From: Escherichia phage pEC-M719-6WT.1
DNA length: 64,000 bases
Reading direction: 5' to 3' (one strand)
Sequence record: OQ845957.1
Position numbers and translations under genes: made by a program. How positions within the stretch are numbered: position 1 is the first letter of the stretch; every line of letters begins with the position of its first letter. Under the pieces are notes generated by a model that was given only the letters and a program-made list of their open reading frames with translations, searched no databases and was not told where the DNA came from. Shown piece after piece: positions 1-63,754 of this stretch.

Positions 1-1602
1 ATGGATTTAAATGCTATTAAGCAGAAGCGAGTGGAAGATGTAAGGAAAGTCCTAGCTGGAGAGTTGGGGCTTTCTGAAGAAGTAAAAGAAATTATCAAAT
101 CATTTGGTAAAGACCCGTCTAAATTCCTTCCTACTCAGATTCTGACTTTATTAAGATATTCACCAGACCAAGTAAGACTCATCTTTAAATTGATGACTGA
201 CAAGAACTACGTAGCTCCACAGCCTGGGTCTCAGGAAGTATTCTTGAACACTAATGCTGACTTGGTGCTATATGGTGGTGCTGCTGGTGCTGGTAAAACG
301 GCTGCCCTTTTAATGGACTCATTACGATTCATTGAAGACCCTAACTATAATGCTGTATATTTCCGTCGAAATACTACGCAGCTACAAGGTGGTTTATGGC
401 CTGCTGCTAAAAAGTTATTTGGTAAGTTTGGTGGTACTCCACACGAACAGAAAATGACTATTACATTCCCTTCAGGAGCTACTATTAAGTTTACTTACTT
501 GGAACTTGAAAAACACTCAGAAGGTCACCAAGGGATTGAATACTCAGCTATCTACTTTGACGAAGGTACACACTTCTCAGCTTCACAGATTTCATATCTA
601 CAAACACGTTTACGTTCTGGTGCTGAAGGTGATTCATACATGAAGATTTCTATGAACCCTGATAGAGACCACTTCATCTATGATTGGGTAGAACCTTTCC
701 TTGACGAAGACGGTTATCCAGACCCTGACAAGTGCGGTAGGATTCGTTGGTATGTTATGAATGATGGTGTGATGGTTTCTGATTGGGACAGAGACAAGAT
801 TCTTGAAATGTTCCCTCTTGAGATTCCTCAAACGTATACCTTCATTTCTGGTACAATCGATGATAACCCAATCCTTGACTTCTTGGAACCTAAGTATCGT
901 GGTAAGCTTGAAAACAACACTCCAGTTAACGTAGCAAGACTTCGTTTTGGTAACTGGAAAGCTCGTGCTGAAGGTTCTAGCTATTGGCAAAGACAATGGT
1001 GTGAGATTGTTGACAGTGTTCCACCAGATATCTTTGACGTTCGAGCATGGGACTTAGCGGCTACTTTACCATCTGAAGTTAACCCTAACCCTGACTGGAC
1101 AGCAGGTGTCAGAATGGCTAAATCTAAAAAAGATGGTTGCTATTATGTCATGAACGTAGTAAGATTTAGGGATAGACCTTCTGGAGTCGAGACACAAATT
1201 AACTTGACTGCTGAAAGCGACGGTAAGCGCACAGGTATTTTTATCCCTCAAGACCCCGGCGCTGCTGGTAAATCCTACGCAACATCCCTTATCAGAAAGC
1301 TTGCTGAGAAAGGCTACAGAGCAAGAGCAAAACCAACAAATAAAGATAAAGTCACCCGTTTTGCGGGTTTCTCTGCTGCTTCTGAAGCAGGATTGGTTAA
1401 GATTGTCAGAGGTAGCTGGAACGAAGCTTACTTCCAAGAACTAGAAGGTTTTTGTGGAGATGGTAAGACCAAGGATGACCAAGTGGATGCTACAAGTGAT
1501 GCTTTCAACAGTCTCAATGAGGTAAAACTGTTTAAGCCACCTTCAATGGGAACTCACACAGACTTAGTGAGAAATAACCCTTATGAGGGACTTAGACGCT
1601 AA
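1..1602 (+). CDS. Terminase large subunit (ATPase + nuclease); may be 5'-truncated by the window edge
   Basis: 533 aa; Walker A-like GGAAGAGKT near N-terminus; sits immediately upstream of portal gene. Confidence 0.8.
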   Translation: MDLNAIKQKRVEDVRKVLAGELGLSEEVKEIIKSFGKDPSKFLPTQILTLLRYSPDQVRLIFKLMTDKNYVAPQPGSQEVFLNTNADLVLYGGAAGAGKTAALLMDSLRFIEDPNYNAVYFRRNTTQLQGGLWPAAKKLFGKFGGTPHEQKMTITFPSGATIKFTYLELEKHSEGHQGIEYSAIYFDEGTHFSASQISYLQTRLRSGAEGDSYMKISMNPDRDHFIYDWVEPFLDEDGYPDPDKCGRIRWYVMNDGVMVSDWDRDKILEMFPLEIPQTYTFISGTIDDNPILDFLEPKYRGKLENNTPVNVARLRFGNWKARAEGSSYWQRQWCEIVDSVPPDIFDVRAWDLAATLPSEVNPNPDWTAGVRMAKSKKDGCYYVMNVVRFRDRPSGVETQINLTAESDGKRTGIFIPQDPGAAGKSYATSLIRKLAEKGYRARAKPTNKDKVTRFAGFSAASEAGLVKIVRGSWNEAYFQELEGFCGDGKTKDDQVDATSDAFNSLNEVKLFKPPSMGTHTDLVRNNPYEGLRR

Positions 1603-1618
1603 TGAAGCGGTGAGATGA

Positions 1619-3585: not shown

Positions 3586-3917
3586 TGGGAACATTAACTA
3601 TTGATGGTAAGAATAAAATCCTAGCCACACTAACCCCGACGACAATTGTTTTACACAATGTAGACCCAACGGCAGACCCTACAGCAAACAAGGTTACTCA
3701 GCCAGTGGCTATTCTATTTTCAGAACCTAACAACGGGCTAATTGCCTCAGAAGATACAGTTAATATTACTGTACCAGCTTCTGCTACGGTTTCTCATTAT
3801 AGCCTGTGGGATGACAATAACAAGTGCATGGCAACGGGTGCTTTAAGTAGTCCTCAATTCTTTGCTGAAGAAGGTATTTATGTTATCTCTTCAGTATCTG
3901 TGGATTTAAACAAATAG
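3585..3917 (+). CDS. Hypothetical head-module protein
   Basis: 110 aa ORF, coupled to upstream ORF. Confidence 0.5.
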   Translation: MGTLTIDGKNKILATLTPTTIVLHNVDPTADPTANKVTQPVAILFSEPNNGLIASEDTVNITVPASATVSHYSLWDDNNKCMATGALSSPQFFAEEGIYVISSVSVDLNK

Positions 3918-3928
3918 GGTGAAAAAGA

Positions 3929-5272
3929 ATGAGTTCGAATATCTTCAGACTTGCTGATAGATTATTCAACCAGCCTTTACTAGCCACAGAATCACTAGCT
4001 CACTCAGCAGCGACTTATGTTAATAACCGTCTGTTAGGTGAAGTTCAAGCAGCAGTAAACTTTGACAAACCTAAAGGTGAAGCAAGAAGTCTTTTAAAAG
4101 TAAAAGATGACATTGCTATTATTCCTATTATGGGTGGCCTTACACATCGTATGACCTTTATGGATGCTATGTGTACTGGTGGTCTAAGTTCTTATGAAGG
4201 TTTACGCAGAGGCTTCGACGAAGCTTTAGCAGATGAATCTATCAATACTATCTTGCTGCATGTTGATTCAGGTGGTGGTGAAGCGTCAGGTTGTTTTGAG
4301 TTGGCACGTCACATCATGGCCTCAAGAGGCAAAAAGAAAATTATTGCTTATGTAGATGAGTTCGCATGTTCCGCTGCATATGCTCTTGCATCTTCTGCTG
4401 ACGAAGTTATTGCTTCTCCAGATGCTGATGTTGGTTCAATTGGTGTAATTATGGTTCACCAAGAATTAACTAAGGCATTTGAAAAGAATGGCGTAACAAT
4501 TAACGTTATTAAAGCTGGAGAATTTAAAGGTATGGGTTCCCCATTCCAAGCTCTCTCAGAAGAAAGTAAAGCAAGACTTCAGAAACGTATTGACGACACC
4601 TACTCAACCTTTACAGGTTTTGTTGCAGAAGCTCGTGATATCTCTGAAGAAGCTGTAAAGAATACTGAGGCGAATGTTTATTCTGCTCAGGAAGCTCTTG
4701 AACTTGGTTTAATTAATTCAATCATGTCTCAAGATGATTTCTTAAATTACTTACAAGGTTCTGAAGAAGCTCCTGTAAGTTTAAACGTTAACAATTCAGG
4801 TGAAGAAATGACTGAACAAGAAAAGCAAGAACTAGAAGCTTTGCGTCTTCAGGTTGCTCAAATGAAAGCTAAAGAACAAGAAGCTGCTCTGTCAGATTTA
4901 ACTGGCAAGATTTCTGCTTCTGCTGAAGCTTTTGGGTTTGACGCAACAGAAGCTGCTCAGGCTATCTTAGGCGCTGGTCTTGACAACCCTCTGAGTGTTC
5001 TCTTTATGAATGCTATGGAAGGTGCTAACCAGAAACTAAATGAAACTATCGCGGCTCATGCTTCTGCATTGTCAGAGAAAGATTCCGAAATCACTAAGCT
5101 AAAAGAAACTGCTGGTGCTGTTCTGGAACACTCTAACGCAATGGAAGAAATGGGTAATGACGGTGAAGCAGAACTGGTTGACGAAGAAAAACCTTCTGAA
5201 AACGCATCTGATGACACCGCAGAACAACGCAAACTGGCTCTCCAGAATGCTTTGAAATCTCTTATCAAATAA
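3929..5272 (+). CDS. Prohead protease (S49/SppA-like, lambda gpC-type) fused to coiled-coil scaffold-like C-terminal domain
   Basis: 447 aa; N-terminal peptidase-like region, C-terminal E/A/Q-rich coiled-coil; lies between portal and capsid genes. Confidence 0.7.
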   Translation: MSSNIFRLADRLFNQPLLATESLAHSAATYVNNRLLGEVQAAVNFDKPKGEARSLLKVKDDIAIIPIMGGLTHRMTFMDAMCTGGLSSYEGLRRGFDEALADESINTILLHVDSGGGEASGCFELARHIMASRGKKKIIAYVDEFACSAAYALASSADEVIASPDADVGSIGVIMVHQELTKAFEKNGVTINVIKAGEFKGMGSPFQALSEESKARLQKRIDDTYSTFTGFVAEARDISEEAVKNTEANVYSAQEALELGLINSIMSQDDFLNYLQGSEEAPVSLNVNNSGEEMTEQEKQELEALRLQVAQMKAKEQEAALSDLTGKISASAEAFGFDATEAAQAILGAGLDNPLSVLFMNAMEGANQKLNETIAAHASALSEKDSEITKLKETAGAVLEHSNAMEEMGNDGEAELVDEEKPSENASDDTAEQRKLALQNALKSLIK

Positions 5273-5284
5273 GGAACACAAATA

Positions 5285-5662
5285 ATGGCATATGAAGGTT
5301 TTACTCACTTAGGTAACAGAGAACCATTGAATGATATCATTCTTTGGGAACAGATTACACCAACAGGTCACTCTCGTAAAGAGTACGCTCCAGTCGCTTC
5401 TACAGAATACCGTGTCGGTGAAGTCCTGAAAGCTGATGGTACTAAGGTAGCCGCTGGCGAAGAATCTCAGGCTGATTCTGTTTGTATCGTAAACTTCTAC
5501 GCAGACCTGCAACTGTCTTACCACGGTCAGTTGAAAGTTGTTGGTATCTACCGTGATGCTGAACTGAAAGACCTCTTAACTCTGGCTGAAGATGTTGATG
5601 CTGACGCAGTTAAGGCGGCTCTGAAAGCGAAAGGCATTGATTTCGTACCAACTGGCCTGTAA
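5285..5662 (+). CDS. Head decoration protein (lambda gpD-like)
   Basis: 125 aa ORF immediately upstream of major capsid gene; size/position as lambda D; highly-expressed-type codon usage. Confidence 0.55.
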   Translation: MAYEGFTHLGNREPLNDIILWEQITPTGHSRKEYAPVASTEYRVGEVLKADGTKVAAGEESQADSVCIVNFYADLQLSYHGQLKVVGIYRDAELKDLLTLAEDVDADAVKAALKAKGIDFVPTGL

Positions 5663-5692
5663 TAACAATAAGACATTCTGGAGAATTTTATA

Positions 5693-6805
5693 ATGGCATT
5701 AACTAATTCTGAAAAAAGCAGATTTTTCCTTGCTGACCTGACTGGTGAAGTCCAGTCTATCCCAAATACTTACGGTTATATTTCCGGTTTGGGTCTTTTC
5801 CGTTCTGCCCCAATTACTCAGACTACTTTCCTGATGGATTTAACTGAGTCTGACATTAGCTTACTGGATGCAGTAGACCGTACCAGCCGTAAAGCTGAGA
5901 CGAGTGCTCCAGAAAGAGTTAAGCAGATTAGCTTCCCAATGATGTACTTCAAGGAAGTGGAAAGCATTACTCCTGATGAAATTCAGGGTGTACGTCAGCC
6001 AGGCACTGCAAACGAACTGACCACTGAAGCTATCGTTCGTGCTCGTAAGCTGATGAAGATTCGTACCAAGTTCGATATTACTCGTGAGTTCTTGTTCATG
6101 CAAGCTCTGAAGGGTAAAGTAATCGACGCTAACGGTGTTCTGTACGCTGACCTGTTCAAGCAGTTCGACGTTGAGAAGAAGACTGTTTACTTCGACCTTG
6201 ACAATCCAAACGCTGATATCGACGCTGCTATCGAAGAACTTCGTATGCACATGGAAGATGAAGCTAAAGTCGGTACTGTAATCAACGGTGAAGAAATTCA
6301 CATCGTTGTTGACCGTCTGTTCTTCAGCAAACTTATCAAGCATCCGAAGATTCGTGACGCATACCTTGCACAGCAGACTCCGCTGGCTTGGCAGCAGATT
6401 ACCGGCTCTCTTAGAACTGGTGGTACTGATGGCGTTCAGGCGCACATGAACACATTCTACTACGGTGGTGTGAAGTTCGTTCAGTACAACGGTAAGTTCC
6501 AAGATAAGCGTGGTAATACTCACGTTCTGGTAAGCATCAACGGCGTAGCAAACACTGTAGGTGTTGGTCATGCGTTCCCTAACGTTTCTATGTTGGGTGA
6601 AGCTAACAACATCTTCGAAGTTGCATATGGCCCATGTCCTAAGATGGGTTACGCAAATACTCTTGGTCAGGAACTGTATGTATTCGAATACGAAAAAGAC
6701 CGTGACGAAGGTATTGACTTCGAAGCTCACTCTTACATGCTGCCATACTGCACACGTCCTCAGTTGCTGGTAGACGTTCGTTCTGACGCTGCACCACAAG
6801 ACTAA
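5693..6805 (+). CDS. Major capsid protein (lambda gpE-like family)
   Basis: 370 aa; strong GGAG-type RBS; biased codon usage typical of abundant structural protein; position after protease/decoration genes. Confidence 0.8.
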   Translation: MALTNSEKSRFFLADLTGEVQSIPNTYGYISGLGLFRSAPITQTTFLMDLTESDISLLDAVDRTSRKAETSAPERVKQISFPMMYFKEVESITPDEIQGVRQPGTANELTTEAIVRARKLMKIRTKFDITREFLFMQALKGKVIDANGVLYADLFKQFDVEKKTVYFDLDNPNADIDAAIEELRMHMEDEAKVGTVINGEEIHIVVDRLFFSKLIKHPKIRDAYLAQQTPLAWQQITGSLRTGGTDGVQAHMNTFYYGGVKFVQYNGKFQDKRGNTHVLVSINGVANTVGVGHAFPNVSMLGEANNIFEVAYGPCPKMGYANTLGQELYVFEYEKDRDEGIDFEAHSYMLPYCTRPQLLVDVRSDAAPQD

Positions 6806-16278: not shown

Positions 16279-16694
16279 TGAAGACAGACTTTGCAATTAA
16301 CCTTGGTGGAGACTACGTAGCTAAAATGGGTTCAGACTCTGTTTACGTAGCCCACGGAGATTTAAAAATTATTGGTAACCAAATTAGAATTATCCCTGAA
16401 GATGATAAAGCTACACAGGTTGCACAAAGATTACATATTAGATGTTTGCTAAGGGCTGGAGAAGTGTTCTTCAATACTTCTGCTGGATTCCCTTATTTGC
16501 AGCTTGCTAAGTTCAAGCAGAGAACATCTATTTTTGATAACTATATGAAAGGCTACCTTGTTGAGACAAGAGATGTGACAAATATCTACAATTACTCTTC
16601 AACAATGGATAGTGCCATGAGAAAAGTTTCAGTCAGCTTTAGTGCAACTACAACTGCTGATACTGTAGAAATTAATGAAGAGGTAAACATTTAA
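16278..16694 (+). CDS. Baseplate wedge protein (gpW/gp25-like)
   Basis: 138 aa ORF following spike gene. Confidence 0.5.
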
Positions 16695-18163
16695 TGGCTG
16701 GATTAACTACAACTGGTTTGCAGACAAAAAGATATCAAGAAATCTTAGATGATATTAAAGAAAGCCTATACAGAGATATTTCACCTAACCTTGATGTATC
16801 TGAAGATAGCCAGCTTGGACTCTTCTTAGCTTCTGTTTGTAGAGCCTTGGCAGATGCACATGAAATCTTGTCAGAAATCTATGATGGTGGTACTATTGAC
16901 AAAGCTGAGGGATTTAGCCTTGATGATGTAACAGCACTGAACGCTGTATACAGATATGTTGCACAAGCTACGAGAGGTCAGGCTGAGTTTACTGGTACAT
17001 CCGGTTCTCCAGTTCCCTCTACAACAAGACTAAGAAGTACAGCAGGTAATATTTTCTACCCTGTATCAACATTTACACTAACTCCGTCTTACTGCGTTGA
17101 AGCAAATTTGGAAGTTAACTCTTTACGTACTGACTCAAACTATGTTATTATTATTGATAACGTTGAATACTCATATCAACCAACAAGCTCAGATACTGTT
17201 ACAACACTTTTACAGCACTTAGCAGACTCTATCAATGGTGGTCTCGTTGCTAAAGCTGAAGTTGTTAATGATGGTTCTGTGTTGAAAATCTATAAAGATA
17301 CTGGAGATATTGTTGCCAGAACAAACCCTATGGTTGTAACTGCGACAACCTTCTTGACATTCACAAAGATTACTACGATTAATGATGTAGTGGCTGAACA
17401 GACAGGCGCTTTACCAACTCTGGCAGGAACACTTATTGAGATTGAAACAACTGTAGATGGTCTTGACGGTGTATTTAACAGATATGACCTAGTAACTGGA
17501 CGTGATGAAGAATCTGACACAGAACTACGTCAGCGTTACCTAGAATCTTTAGCAGTTACTGGTGTGGGTACTTTAGATGCTATCGTTGCTGCTGTCAAGA
17601 GAGTTCAAGGTGTATCTGATGCTTCTGGTGTAGAAAATGACACAGAGACTACTTCTTCTGGTGGGTTACCTCCAAAGTCTTTCAAGATTGTCGTTGTAGG
17701 TGGTCAGAACGACAACGTAGCACAGGCTATCTGGGATGCTAAACCTGCTGGTATTAGAGCATACGGCTCTATCTTTGGAACAGCTTATGACTTAGGTGAC
17801 TTACCACATAATGTCTACTTTAGCAGACCAATGCCTAAGTATGTTTTTGTCAAGGTAAAATACTCAATGTACGATGAAGAATCTTTGAACATCCCTGAAC
17901 AGGATATCCATGACAGAGTTGTGCAGGGTATTAACGCTTATGGTAGAACCTTGAAAGTTGGTAATGACGTTATCCCTAACAGAATCTATGGATATGTTTA
18001 TGACGTTATCCAAGGTATTGAGATTAATGAAATCAAAGTAGCCTTGGCAAATAACCAATCAGTACCTCCAGCAGATGACCAGTATACCACTGCAAGAATC
18101 ACAGTTGATGGTGACCAGTATACCGTATGGGAAAGCAGTCAGTATACCATTACTAAGGAATAA
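16694..18163 (+). CDS. Baseplate protein (gpJ-like)
   Basis: 489 aa ORF following gpW-like gene. Confidence 0.5.
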   Translation: MAGLTTTGLQTKRYQEILDDIKESLYRDISPNLDVSEDSQLGLFLASVCRALADAHEILSEIYDGGTIDKAEGFSLDDVTALNAVYRYVAQATRGQAEFTGTSGSPVPSTTRLRSTAGNIFYPVSTFTLTPSYCVEANLEVNSLRTDSNYVIIIDNVEYSYQPTSSDTVTTLLQHLADSINGGLVAKAEVVNDGSVLKIYKDTGDIVARTNPMVVTATTFLTFTKITTINDVVAEQTGALPTLAGTLIEIETTVDGLDGVFNRYDLVTGRDEESDTELRQRYLESLAVTGVGTLDAIVAAVKRVQGVSDASGVENDTETTSSGGLPPKSFKIVVVGGQNDNVAQAIWDAKPAGIRAYGSIFGTAYDLGDLPHNVYFSRPMPKYVFVKVKYSMYDEESLNIPEQDIHDRVVQGINAYGRTLKVGNDVIPNRIYGYVYDVIQGIEINEIKVALANNQSVPPADDQYTTARITVDGDQYTVWESSQYTITKE

Positions 18164-26689: not shown

Positions 26690-26989
26690 CTAATCTACCT
26701 TACTTAAGTTGAAGTTTAAGCCAAGTTTATCACAAACACTAATCATGTAGTCAAGAGATACTTTCCCACTACCATTCAGAATGTTTGAGACTCTGGCTTG
26801 AGATATTTCACAAATCTTTGCTACCTGAATCTGTGAAAGGTTGTTTCTTTTCATGTGGATGTTTAACTTTTCAGAGATGTAAAACTTCATCTCATCAACA
26901 TCCATTCCTGCTATATAAGCTTCCATTTCAGCCTCTCTATCTGCCCCCCAATCATCTTGAGGTGCATAAGGGTCAAAGATACTATTCAT
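26690..26989 (-). CDS. XRE-family helix-turn-helix DNA-binding protein
   Basis: 99 aa; LSQIQVAKICEISQARVSNILNG helix-turn-helix-like segment. Confidence 0.55.
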   Translation of the reverse strand: MNSIFDPYAPQDDWGADREAEMEAYIAGMDVDEMKFYISEKLNIHMKRNNLSQIQVAKICEISQARVSNILNGSGKVSLDYMISVCDKLGLNFNLSKVD

Positions 26990-32934: not shown

Positions 32935-33131
32935 TTCCACTCCCTCTCAAACATATGACTCCATACCTTACTGCAAAACGACACAAAAAGCAAGTTGACA
33001 AATCACTTGACAGGGTGTTAGTCTTGTATGCAGTGGGTTTTAACTTAAAAGACTCCCTTTACAGATTAACTATACAGATTCTTTAAAACCCTTAAAAGAC
33101 TTTTAATAGCTTTTAAAAAGCTTTAAAGTAT

Positions 33132-33148
33132 TACGTATAGAATACGTA
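33132..33148. promoter_or_regulatory. Palindrome TACGTAT-AGA-ATACGTA in divergent intergenic region
   Basis: Perfect 7-bp inverted repeat read from sequence; lies between divergently transcribed pol and plus-strand genes. Confidence 0.5.
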
Positions 33149-33191
33149 AAGAAAGAGATTAAGACTTAATAGAAACTATAAAGAGGCTGCC

Positions 33192-57949: not shown

Positions 57950-57973
57950 AGGGCTGCTTCGGCAGCCTTTTTT
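57950..57973 (+). terminator. Rho-independent terminator
   Basis: GGGCTGC-TTCG-GCAGCC-TTTTTT. Confidence 0.75.
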
Positions 57974-58034
57974 ATTTGTGTTTTGTGCAGAGTAGTGTAT
58001 AATTACCCCTATGTTTAATAAAATAGGAGAACCA

Positions 58035-58583
58035 ATGAAGAAATTCATTTTAGGTTTGTGCTTACTTTTTACAGCACAAGTAGCTGTGGCAACTGACTGC
58101 CCTGAGTTAACTATCGGCCAGAAAGTAAACATGCTTAAAGCTTACAACTATGGCGAAAACAAAATGGGAAAAGGTTGGGGCATTACACTTGCAGCTATAG
58201 CCTTACAAGAGTCAGAGTTAGGTCTTAACCTAGAAAATAGAAAGACACATGATTATGGCATCTTCCAGAATCACTTGAAGACTGTTGTAAAGCGTAACAA
58301 AGTTAACCCTAATGTAGCTAGGAAGAAGCTTATCAGAGACTTTCAATATGCTGCACAGGAGACTCACAAAGAACTTGAATTCTGGACTAAGGTACATGGT
58401 ACACCAAAAGGGAAGAAGTCTCTTAAAAAGGTGTTAGCCTCTTACAATGCAGGATATAGCTACAGCATCCCAAAAGCTAGACAGTACTCTAAAGATGTGT
58501 ATAATAATATGAAAGTGCTTGCTCAATGTGAGTTTGCAACAAACATTCAAAAGGTAAAACATGAGCGTATTAAGTCAATCTGA
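58035..58583 (+). CDS. Lytic transglycosylase (SLT domain) with N-terminal signal peptide
   Basis: Signal peptide MKKFILGLCLLFTAQVAVA; SLT motifs AIALQES and DYGIFQ; AGGAGA RBS; TATAAT-like -10 upstream. Confidence 0.55.
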   Translation: MKKFILGLCLLFTAQVAVATDCPELTIGQKVNMLKAYNYGENKMGKGWGITLAAIALQESELGLNLENRKTHDYGIFQNHLKTVVKRNKVNPNVARKKLIRDFQYAAQETHKELEFWTKVHGTPKGKKSLKKVLASYNAGYSYSIPKARQYSKDVYNNMKVLAQCEFATNIQKVKHERIKSI

Positions 58584-61527: not shown

Positions 61528-62310
61528 ATGGGTATTGTAAAAGTCATCAAAGGTGATATCTTCGCAGACTTTGAGAAAGGTAAGTTTGATATCATCGGTC
61601 ACGGTTGTAACTGTATGAATCTGATGGGTGCAGGTATTGCTGACAAGATTTCTAAGGGCTACCCAAAAGCCTATGAAACTGATGCTGAAGTCTACCGTGT
61701 AGCAGGAGGAAGAGAGCATAAACCTTGTCAGAAACTGCTTGGTAAACTCTCTGTAGCACGTCTTAAACAAGGCCGTATTGCTAACCTGTACACTCAGTTG
61801 AAGACTGGTAAAGATGCTCGCTATGATGCTCTTGAGAGCGCTCTGTTGAGCCTTAACCAGTACTGCAAAGTGAATAGACTGAAGAAAGTTGGGCTTCCAA
61901 TGATTGGTGCAGGGATTGGTGGGCTTGACCCGAAAGCTGTTGTGGTGATTATGAATCACATCCTGAAAGATGTTGATGTTTACCTTTACGTGTTTGAAGA
62001 GGCAATGTTTAATACTCTGTCAACATGGGGTAATCACAGTGAGCCACAATACTTTGCAGGTGTAGCCGTTGTCAACGAAGATGGAGTTACCCTCTTCAGG
62101 CATCGCCAGTACAAGGTACATCGGAGTAACCCTCCGGTTGAGCGAATGTCTCTAAGTAACGCTCAAGTTACCCCGCCGTTGAAAGGTAGTATGCAACGTG
62201 CAGTGACATTTGGAAGTGAACCTGATGTGTACATTCTTGCAGCAAATGAGAAAGATGCTGAAGCAATTATAGACATTTCTAATATCAAGTTCTTAGCTGC
62301 AAAGAACTAA
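61528..62310 (+). CDS. Macro-domain protein (ADP-ribose binding/processing) with ~110 aa C-terminal extension
   Basis: N-terminal GDIFA...DIIGHGCNCMNLMGAGIADKI and later GLPMIGAGIGGLDP resemble macro-domain glycine-rich ADP-ribose binding loops. Confidence 0.6.
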   Translation: MGIVKVIKGDIFADFEKGKFDIIGHGCNCMNLMGAGIADKISKGYPKAYETDAEVYRVAGGREHKPCQKLLGKLSVARLKQGRIANLYTQLKTGKDARYDALESALLSLNQYCKVNRLKKVGLPMIGAGIGGLDPKAVVVIMNHILKDVDVYLYVFEEAMFNTLSTWGNHSEPQYFAGVAVVNEDGVTLFRHRQYKVHRSNPPVERMSLSNAQVTPPLKGSMQRAVTFGSEPDVYILAANEKDAEAIIDISNIKFLAAKN

Positions 62311-62343
62311 GAAACTCTGTAGCATATTCACAATAGACTAAGC

Positions 62344-62387
62344 CTTTCTTATCTGGTGAATTTTCAGGTAAGGAGGGCTTTTTCATT
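62344..62387 (+). terminator. Rho-independent terminator
   Basis: 13-bp stem CCTTTCTTATCTG/CAGGTAAGGAGGG (with G-U pairs) followed by CTTTTTC. Confidence 0.5.
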
Positions 62388-62578
62388 TTAAAATTGTGCA
62401 GGTAAAAGTCTGGACAGAAATCTGTAGAGAAAATTTTGAACTCCAAAGGGAAAATTCATTTTCAATTTGTGCAGGTGGACTCCAAAGAGATTTTTCATTT
62501 TCAAAACGTGCAGTCCCGGCGAGTGTCGGGCAAGAAAAATCATTTTAGAATTGTGCAGGTAGGTGGGTGCAGGTGGGG
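62382..62578. repeat. Array of four ~22-bp repeats TTCATTTT-N-AATTGTGCAGGT plus extra GTGCAGGT copy
   Basis: Copies at 62382-62403, 62455-62476, 62494-62515, 62539-62560; irregular spacing 73/39/45 bp. Confidence 0.75.
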
Positions 62579-62738
62579 ATGCCACCATTTCTCACAAGGC
62601 TACCACATCTGAAAAGAAAAGTCAACAGAAAAATTTGTAGTGGATTGAAAAATAATTCTTGATTGTAGTTCTGTTTTGTGATAGTTGCATGTGCCCGTCT
62701 CATTACAGTTTTTGCAAAAAATATTTTTAAAAATTTGC

Positions 62739-62767
62739 TTGACCTGTAAAACAAAGGCGTTTAGTAT
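62739..62767 (+). promoter_or_regulatory. Sigma70-like promoter TTGACC-N17-TAGTAT, bracketed by inverted repeat TGCCCGTCT/AGACGGGCA
   Basis: Direct reading; AT-rich UP-like tract upstream; inverted repeat arms at 62692-62700 and 62775-62783. Confidence 0.55.
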
Positions 62768-62816
62768 TTGCATCAGACGGGCAAGCAAGCCCACTTCCTA
62801 AACTGGAGATTCCAAA

Positions 62817-63023
62817 ATGTTATATCAACGCCAATTGATGATTGTAGACAATAACAAGACTAAAAAGCGCCGTTTCTTTATGCTTATCTGTGACGTGTGG
62901 CAAAGAATATCAGAAAAAGATTTTGATAAGTATGTTGATACGTCTATCAAGTCAGATTGTTACTTGACAAATCACACAAGACAGTTTACAAGACATACAG
63001 CAATTTACTACTATGACGTTTAA
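62817..63023 (+). CDS. Small early-type hypothetical protein
   Basis: 68 aa; conserved leader CTAAACTGGAGATTCCAAAATG. Confidence 0.5.
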   Translation: MLYQRQLMIVDNNKTKKRRFFMLICDVWQRISEKDFDKYVDTSIKSDCYLTNHTRQFTRHTAIYYYDV

Positions 63024-63202
63024 AAGGTCTTGACAATGATTAAAGAAGACTATGTAATAAAATACAAAGGTAGTGACGGATACACAAAAATAGGTCGCGT
63101 CTTCTACCTTTACAAGTCAGTTACGGGTAATGACTGCATAGCTCTAACAAATGGCGACAAAATAACCATGAAAGATTTTATAAAAATTATTTCATAAAGT
63201 AC

Positions 63203-63231
63203 TTTACATGGGGTTTAGAGTTCGATAGTAT
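63203..63231 (+). promoter_or_regulatory. Sigma70-like promoter TTTACA-N17-TAGTAT overlapping hairpin TGGGGTTTA/TAAGCCCCA
   Basis: Direct reading; same -10 hexamer and spacing as 62739 promoter. Confidence 0.55.
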
Positions 63232-63281
63232 AAGCCCCAGATAAAGAGCTTTACCAACAATCCTAAACTGGAGAATCTAAA

Positions 63282-63665
63282 ATGAAAAAATACTACATGC
63301 CTAAATTCATCAAAAAAGAAAACTTTCGTGGTGCTCTGGAAAAATCTATGGGCGAACAATTCAAAGGCAAAATAATTGTTGTACACGCATATAATTTTAA
63401 GTATGATGTAAATGGTAACAAGATAAACCACTATAAAGCTACACTGTTAGATGGTACACTCTCAGGAGAAAAGGCTGTTATCCATGCACTTGCAGGACGT
63501 GGTAAGACGCTAATCCGTTGCGATAAACGCCGCTATCAAGGTAGTGCTTACGGTTATGAGGATGCAATCTATCATCTTGATAATATGGGTTACAACGTGG
63601 TAAAAGCTGGAGTATCCCAAATGATTGGTAGTGATGGTTACGTAACAATCTTTGAAATTAACTAA
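63282..63665 (+). CDS. Early-type hypothetical protein
   Basis: 127 aa; conserved leader CTAAACTGGAGAATCTAAAATG. Confidence 0.55.
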   Translation: MKKYYMPKFIKKENFRGALEKSMGEQFKGKIIVVHAYNFKYDVNGNKINHYKATLLDGTLSGEKAVIHALAGRGKTLIRCDKRRYQGSAYGYEDAIYHLDNMGYNVVKAGVSQMIGSDGYVTIFEIN

Positions 63666-63673
63666 TAAAGTGC

Positions 63674-63702
63674 TTTACATGGGGTTTATAAATTGCTAGT
63701 AT
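63674..63702 (+). promoter_or_regulatory. Sigma70-like promoter TTTACA-N17-TAGTAT overlapping hairpin TGGGGTTTA/TAAGCCCCA (second copy)
   Basis: Near-identical to 63203 module. Confidence 0.55.
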
Positions 63703-63754
63703 AAGCCCCAGATAAAGAACTTTATCCAACAACCTAAACTGGAGATTCAAAAAA

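Follow-up and report, generated by a model that had tools for sequence, protein, structure and literature searches.

Several phage and plasmid systems contain small clusters of short DNA sites. In phage phi29, four p4 sites lie between the early and the late promoters. Iteron arrays are found in the lambda origin (four O-protein sites), in the plasmids P1, F, R6K and pSC101, and in T4 oriE. The MarA/SoxS/Rob marbox and the sites of winged-helix Rep proteins are asymmetric and bipartite, and they are read by two-domain monomers. The iss region of phage T5 is a conserved untranslated repeat region with DnaA boxes. It is located behind a terminator, where the 7.9% of the genome that enters first has its inner edge (bioRxiv 10.1101/866236; NC_005859). 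Here, an array of four short two-part repeats was analysed in a 64,000-nucleotide stretch of Escherichia phage pEC-M719-6WT.1 (sequence record OQ845957.1); the whole stretch is called the window below. The phage is a Felix-O1-like member of the Ounavirinae, and the nearest relative is SUSP2 (Suspvirus), with ~84% identity across the array region. The array is located in a gap between two genes and is the best conserved non-coding element found there. It might be a cis-acting DNA element with four same-direction sites for a sequence-specific DNA-binding protein, a reading to which we give somewhat better than even odds (about 0.55).

The classical typing phages for Salmonella include Felix O1 and its relatives, which also find wide use in biocontrol and therapy. 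The array does not appear among the direct repeats listed in the Felix O1 genome paper, which states that the temporal regulation is not understood. In well-annotated records, the annotation of the gap is limited to a terminator and a promoter. No description of the array was found in the literature searched, and no annotation of it in the records examined.

A conserved bipartite motif unique in the genome

The four copies are all on the plus strand and start at positions 62383, 62456, 62495 and 62540, with the irregular spacing (73, 39 and 45 bp) that the first-pass annotation had described. The motif in the window is W4-TCATTTY-N6-GTGCA(G/T). The upstream A4 or T4 block adds 4 bp, and therefore the site is about 23-25 bp long. 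The right half had been given as GTGCAGGT in every copy; this is correct for copies 1, 2 and 4, but copy 3 has GTGCAGTC. The sites were scored with a weight matrix derived from the copies of the relatives. Copy 1 (62379-62403; TTTT TCATTTT AAAATT GTGCAGGT) reached 39.1 bits and copy 2 (62452-62476; AAAT TCATTTT CAATTT GTGCAGGT) 37.4 bits, followed by copy 3 (62491-62515; TTTT TCATTTT CAAAAC GTGCAGTC) with 33.0 bits and copy 4 (62536-62560; AAAA TCATTTT AGAATT GTGCAGGT) with 32.5 bits. The four copies thus scored 32-39 bits, and the best other site in the window 14 bits. The pattern TCATTTTNRANNYGTGCAG also has four matches in the 64-kb window and none elsewhere in it, with ~0.01 matches expected from shuffles. 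This pattern was composed after the copies had been seen, and therefore the independent support is the conservation in the relatives.

Conservation was assessed from blastn searches and from the region extracted from about 60 genomes and contigs. The gap alone matched 289 phage records, 237 of which covered at least 80% of it; no fewer than 289 genomes in the databases thus carry the array. In 28 records of Erwinia phages (Kolesnikvirus and relatives), the sole blastn match to the gap was 62455-62557, which is the array. The order is constant in the compared genomes: the macro-domain gene, the terminator, the array, a variable tract, and the early promoters. Three to five copies were found at the same place in Felixounavirus, Suspvirus, Mooglevirus, Kolesnikvirus and the distant metagenomic lineage L056. 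The phages of E. coli, Salmonella, Shigella and Citrobacter have copy spacings of 73-77, 39-41 and 45 bp; those of Erwinia and Hafnia have 37, 37 and 39 bp, and their right half is GTGCATAG. Three copies are present in the Si3 group. The 88-kb metagenomic phage L056 has five copies (one of them degenerate) behind a short macro gene. Its neighbouring proteins share 38-62% identity with those of the window, and none of the isolated phages is closely related to it.

A collection of 45 distinct copies from 13 genomes gave the logo W4-TCATTTY-(M R A W W Y)-GTGCA-K. The gap between the half-sites is 6 bp in 45/45 copies, a count that is partly circular since the collecting regular expression fixed the spacing. 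The block upstream of the motif is all A or all T, and the right-hand extension is lineage-specific (GGT or TAG). In an alignment of 26 sequences, the mean column identity was 0.95 in the core, 0.77 in the N6 spacer, 0.72 between the units, and 0.60 in the tract after the array. The core is kept while the spacers and flanks drift, which indicates purifying selection on a bipartite DNA site. Whole-genome scans of Pr103Blw and phiEa21-4, of the kind that the first-pass annotation had proposed, matched only the array.

The ~38-bp repeat unit consists of one site and a GRACTCC-type block, and neighbouring units abut. The upstream blocks are GAACTCCAAAGGG in unit 2 (62438-62450, plus strand) and GGACTCCAAAGAG in unit 3 (62477-62489, plus strand). 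The A-tracts showed no 10-11 bp periodicity in the array that would suggest phasing or curvature; the only period is about 38 bp. The array is also not CRISPR-like, as the earlier reading had it, and is not a regular tandem array: the copies are irregularly spaced, relatives share the ‘spacers’, which are conserved, and Tandem Repeats Finder (TRF) reports none.

Two outlying elements had also been associated with the array. The fifth GTGCAGGT half-site at 62567-62574 is present, but it is not conserved; the stretch reads GTGTAGGT in the compared sequence L014, and is a C-rich tract in Felix O1 and SUSP2. The GTGCAG element near 57985 also exists, but it is a weak near-copy (14 bits) and not a conserved part of the array. 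It is a terminator T-tract followed by GTGCAG; 15 bits were reached in one of 20 shuffles of the window, and the hexamer by itself occurs more than 50 times in the window. The near-copy (57966-57992; CCTTTTTTATTTGTGTTTTGTGCAGAG) is kept in Pr103Blw with 16 bits and is absent from the equivalent terminator of phiEa21-4. At a distance of exactly 73 bp downstream, the next gene contains a second weak match (58039-58065; 13.7 bits), which Pr103Blw does not retain. Chance and terminator-tail similarity probably account for both weak matches.

No mirror array was found at the left terminal block, where it was looked for. A search of bacterial genomes with a two-copy pattern gave no match in any named enterobacterial genome, and the bacterial and metagenome matches outside Ounavirinae-like contigs are unrelated exact tandem repeats. 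An unrelated viral contig of 10.2 kb (L048, the same as L117) carries two 50-bp tandem units with TCATTTT-N6-GTGCAG on the reverse strand (3880-3990). They sit just 5' of a SAP-like gene, which itself precedes an apparent terminase gene; this resemblance is probably a coincidence.

Genomic position and neighbouring elements

The gap that bears the array (62311-62816, 506 bp) has no conserved open reading frame (ORF). It is bounded on the left by the macro-domain (‘Tk.4-like phosphatase’) gene (61528-62310, plus strand; Pfam Macro 5.8e-08; PHROG 335), and on the right by the first small early gene (62817-63023, plus strand), which encodes 68 aa. The macro-domain gene closes a long rightward operon and is the constant upstream neighbour of the array; this synteny is common to SUSP2, Felix O1, Mordin, phiEa21-4 and L056. 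The macro protein has 260 aa in the window, and ~110 C-terminal residues are without a Pfam match. The L056 homologue (1170-1616, minus strand; 148 aa) is the macro domain alone, and the array is present beside both forms. An intrinsic terminator hairpin follows the gene (62340-62380, plus strand), for which the terminator scan gave 17 pairs and then TTTCATTTTA. This terminator corresponds to t13 of the Felix O1 terminator list (PMC3185647), and its T-tract doubles as the left half of copy 1. The 68-aa gene belongs to PHROG 5293, which has no assigned function, and is missing from some relatives (e.g. Pr103Blw).

In Pr103Blw, Ro111lw and phiEa21-4, small early genes form a block of 6-7 kb that reaches the right genome end, and the array is its inner border. 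Position 62364 of the window is a homology breakpoint: the megablast matches of many relatives (Mooglevirus, SUSP1 and the Sf13 group) begin exactly at the junction of terminator and array. The array is thus also a mosaic boundary, with a divergent macro gene on one side and a conserved control region on the other.

The array lies upstream of early sigma-70 promoters, and the promoter scan bore out this part of the first-pass annotation. The clear early promoter (TTGACC-17-TAGTAT; 62739-62767, plus strand) has an AT-rich upstream element, and carries a promoter annotation in phage ASO1B. A possible extended -10 promoter (62659-62687, plus strand) is composed of TTGATT, 17 bp ending in TGA, and TAGTTG; this is our own reading and was not called by the scan. 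The corresponding block (TTGATT...TGATAGTTG) is nearly invariant in the relatives. From the end of copy 4, the distance is 99 bp to the possible -35-like hexamer (62659) and 179 bp to the clear promoter (62739).

Some other features were found around these promoters. The sequence GCCCGTCT (62692-62701), located 5' of the TTGACC-17-TAGTAT promoter, is complementary to AGACGGGC (62775-62784) at the start of its transcript, and this pairing is kept in relatives despite sequence changes (CCCGTT / AACGGG). If transcription started at the upstream promoter-like element, the RNA could form a fold that spans the second promoter. A repeated cassette also precedes each small early gene (63184-63282 and 63655-63753, also 62790-62817), and its copies are 83% identical. 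The cassette contains TTTACA-17-TAGTATAAG, an inverted repeat (GGGGTTT...AAGCCCC) across the promoter, the leader CCTAAACTGGAGA, and ATG. T4-type phages have similar elements, the mobile promoter stem-loop cassettes.

A second repeat type is also present in the gap, on the plus strand. The copy AAAAGTCTGGACAGAAATCTGTAG (62404-62427) and its partner AAAAGTCAACAGAAAAATTTGTAG (62617-62640) share 75% identity, and the pair (AAAAGTC..ACAGAAA..TGTAG) flanks copies 2-4 on both sides. In Felix O1, this repeat occurs in tandem (TCTGTAGAGAAA/TCTATAGAGAAA). The lineage-variable tract after the array (62559-62610, plus strand) is G-rich in the window, where it holds the fifth GTGCAGGT and ranks among the most stable duplex DNA. 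A C-rich polypyrimidine tract takes its place in Felix O1, SUSP2 and Mordin. This C-rich tract (CCCCTCTCCCCCTCTTACTCCCCCTCCCCCC) is located directly 3' of the array in most lineages (Felix O1, L005 1455-1515; also L001 and L003). With at least four G-runs, its bottom strand could fold into a G-quadruplex. An unrelated G-rich variant replaces it in the window, L014 and L018.

Possible roles of the array

The favoured reading is an array of protein-binding DNA sites. The centres of the two half-sites are ~12 bp apart, roughly one helical turn, and a protein or a pair of DNA-binding domains might reach two successive major grooves from the same side of the helix. The site would be asymmetric, with two specific halves, an A/T-rich spacer, and an A- or T-tract flank. 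Since the ~38-bp units abut, the bound protein would coat about 180-240 bp. The array sits in a pocket shielded from transcription, between the operon terminator upstream and the early promoters ~100-180 bp downstream; the terminator is directly upstream, and the sigma-70 scan calls no promoter within the array. The complex might insulate the first early promoters or set their activity. The role that we prefer, tentatively and at distinctly lower odds than protein binding as such, is a nucleoprotein complex that serves the terminal early-gene block as a boundary or a regulator. The data show the motif, its uniqueness in the genome, its fixed place and how deeply it is conserved; protein binding is inferred, and the exact role and the source of the binder (phage or host) are guesses.

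The first-pass annotation had proposed either regulator sites or iterons. The general idea fits, as an invariant bipartite core with drifting spacers is consistent with a cluster of binding sites. Either of the two proposals may hold; the sites overlap no promoter and have no AT-rich unwinding element beside them. It had also named the helix-turn-helix (HTH) protein at 26690-26989 as a candidate binder. This protein is of the Cro/C1 type (HTH_3), and its homologues were found in 258 records, none of them an Erwinia phage, although the array is present there. The complete phiEa21-4 genome has no detectable homologue (best tblastn E = 0.19). The HTH_3 protein is missing from array-bearing Erwinia phages, and therefore cannot be the universal binder.

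Several points weigh against a protein-binding array. No binder was found, and the one annotated regulator in the window is the HTH_3 protein that the Erwinia phages lack. The sites are at least 99 bp from promoter-like elements, which is unusual for a simple repressor or activator. The spacings of 37-45 bp are not whole helical turns, so that adjacent sites would face different sides of the helix. The T-tract of copy 1 is common to the terminator, and thus the unit could stem from a duplicated terminator tail. The literature searches yielded no experiment or transcriptome for the array region. The array also does not look like a cluster of promoter-proximal operators: no copy overlaps or adjoins a promoter, and the only candidate regulator tested (HTH_3) does not co-occur with the sites.

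The strongest of the rival readings, though rather doubtful, is that the repeats are the iterons of a replication origin, at which an initiator opens nearby DNA or loads a T7-gp4-like primase-helicase. The array has 3-5 direct repeats of ~23 bp in one orientation, once per genome and in a transcription-shielded gap; the lambda origin also has four sites, the same count as in the window. In L056, a 170-bp AT-rich TTAACA tract directly abuts the array. The Erwinia-lineage copies read CTATGCACA or TTATGCACG on the minus strand, which match the DnaA box TTATNCACA at 8/9 positions. An AT-rich patch (62700-62745) is also among the least stable 1.5% of 50-bp windows. However, the stability of the DNA beside the array (62500-62600) places it in the top 0.1-1% of the window, and the least stable DNA of the window is elsewhere, in the divergent intergenic region at 33.0-33.2 kb. 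The spacing is irregular and out of helical phase (73/39/45 bp in the window, 37/37/39 bp in Erwinia phages), compared with ~11 or 22 bp for iterons. No Rep-like or origin-binding domain was found by Pfam and PHROG in the scanned proteins of the flanking genes and the replication module. The GC skew shows no sign change at the array, though the skew here follows gene orientation. The window copies (ACCTGCACA on the minus strand) match only 5/8 specified DnaA-box bases. A DnaA box was thus rejected as the general identity of the repeat, as the 8/9 match is confined to the Erwinia and L056 lineages and is poor in the window; it is a lead only.

The region at 32941-33191 separates the DNA polymerase gene, on the minus strand, from the rightward replication operon, and contains direct and inverted repeats of the CTTAAAAG type. 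Judged by composition only, this region would suit an unwinding element or origin better than the array does.

It is improbable that the array acts as RNA, for example as a read-through 3' untranslated region (UTR), a small RNA, a protein sponge, or back-up terminators. Copy 1 shares sequence with the T-tract of a genuine terminator, and terminators with the tail TTTTTCATTT are common in these phages, but copies 2-4 have no upstream hairpin. The C-rich, G-poor tract after the array could load Rho in most lineages, a role that we infer; however, the window and L014/L018 are without it. No promoter was called upstream of the array or within it. The choice of either A4 or T4 in the upstream block suits DNA shape more than RNA sequence. 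Moreover, a known or structured RNA was rejected: the best Rfam E value was 1.3, all hits were below the gathering score, and the folding energies were ordinary (z -1.60 and -1.09).

Slightly less plausible still is a T5 iss-like stop or anchor for DNA entry, in which the right end with the early genes enters first and pauses until early proteins are made. In the phages with defined ends, the array is 6.1-7 kb from the right end, which is 7.6% of the genome in Pr103Blw and ~8% in Ro111lw. The stretch from the array to the right end has only small early genes, each with its own promoter. The architecture of the T5 iss is alike, and the Erwinia-lineage copies are near-DnaA boxes; but the copies are poor DnaA-box matches in the phages of E. 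coli and Salmonella, and the likeness to iss is in outline only. The array is also outside any long terminal repeat, and has no inverted repeats or palindromes of the iss type. The literature searches found no report of two-step entry or of a first-entering end for a Felix-O1-like phage. If the reading is true, the right-terminal 7-8% of the genome would go in first, and the array, as an entry stop or membrane anchor, would be the functional counterpart of the T5 iss in a contractile-tailed phage, possibly through recognition of DnaA-like boxes in some lineages.

There is little to favour a functionless leftover of a tandem duplication of the terminator tail, kept by block recombination. By our own alignment, the CAGGT...W5CATTTT...GTG unit can be aligned to the 3' arm and T-tract of the terminator, and the copy number ranges from 3 to 5. 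However, the core is essentially invariant where proteins are only 40-60% identical, while the spacers, flanks and neighbouring tract have turned over; neutral DNA would not retain a fixed bipartite pattern in all copies.

That the repeats are promoters (tandem sigma-70, an alternative sigma, or a phage-specific factor) is the least credible reading: the minus-strand left half (TAAAAT or GAAAAT) is -10-like and GAACTC followed by TCAA is loosely sigma-E-like, but the scan is blank in the array (none called between 62380 and 62738), the -10-like hexamers have no acceptable -35 at a distance of 16-18 bp, the sigma-E-like elements are spaced by 18 bp in the window lineage and by 16 bp in Erwinia phages, where the -35-like block is poor, and a promoter class would recur genome-wide, whereas this motif occurs here only.

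Other identities were also rejected. A coding function was discarded: close relatives have a shortened form of the 66-aa minus-strand ORF, Mordin has a frame-shifted one, and phiEa21-4 has none, but the DNA core does not change where this ORF breaks down. Comparison by hand with sigma-E, sigma-54, CRP, IHF, Fis, marbox, EcoKI (AAC-N6-GTGC) and Chi gave no consistent fit across copies and lineages. A terminal repeat or pac/cos site was excluded, since the direct terminal repeats (DTRs) of these phages are 581-613 bp long, lie 6-7 kb downstream, and have different repeats. A 608-bp DTR was shown in UAB_Phi87 by Bal31 digestion and run-off sequencing (PMC4837284), and PhageTerm gave DTRs of 581 bp for Pr103Blw and 613 bp for Ro111lw (PMC8303462, PMC6454146). 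In the Pr103Blw record, the DTR occupies 1-581 and 87841-88421, and the array ~81.55-81.73 kb, so that 6.1 kb separate it from the right repeat; the arrangement is the same in Ro111lw. A physical genome end at the array was rejected as well, as several metagenomic contigs break within the C-rich tract (L015, L016, L045, L052, L087 and L089) with the Nextera adapter on both sides. The two ends of one broken metagenomic contig join across this tract. The breaks near the array are therefore read as a probable coverage dropout, not a genome end.

The terminal repeat densely carries another repeat, TGTTAAG. The DTR and its flanks (Pr103Blw 1-581 and 600-1130) are crowded with TGTTAAG/CTTGTTAG (TTAACA reversed), often 11 bp apart. 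In phiEa21-4, the non-coding gap after the early block (16472-17660) has TGTTAAG-type and TTCTAA repeats. The TTAACA-rich tract that adjoins the L056 array is at 5604-5770 on the reverse strand. The TGTTAAG-type repeats may be packaging or end-recognition sites, because Felix O1 is without a recognised small terminase.

With its 48 core bases, the array is a precise mutable handle toward the missing regulator or initiator. It also matters for phage engineering: the gap seems a convenient non-coding insertion site, but it is probably not neutral.

Comparison with known systems

The array shares some properties with each of the systems described above. Like the iss of T5, it has conserved untranslated repeats after a terminator, at the inner border of a terminal early block of ~8%. 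The T5 iss differs in that it lies within a 10-kb terminal repeat, has inverted repeats, palindromes and paired DnaA boxes (TTWTNCACA), and serves a two-step injection. Like the iteron origins, the array consists of a few same-direction repeats of ~20 bp at a single non-coding place, and is conserved beyond its surroundings. However, its spacing is 37-45 and 73 bp, whereas that of iterons is ~11 or 22 bp; no AT-rich unwinding element abuts it, and no cognate initiator gene was recognised among the proteins scanned.

As in phi29, four T-rich sites are located in an intergenic control region beside early promoters, and here too they may be bound by a protein. The p4 sites are inverted repeats that overlap or adjoin promoters, whereas the sites of the array are asymmetric and at least 99 bp away. 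The marbox consensus does not fit the array motif in a hand alignment, and no protein of that type was identified; the design of the site is nevertheless similar to that of marbox-type sites, which are also asymmetric and ~20 bp long, with two specific blocks about one turn apart and an A/T-rich spacer between them.

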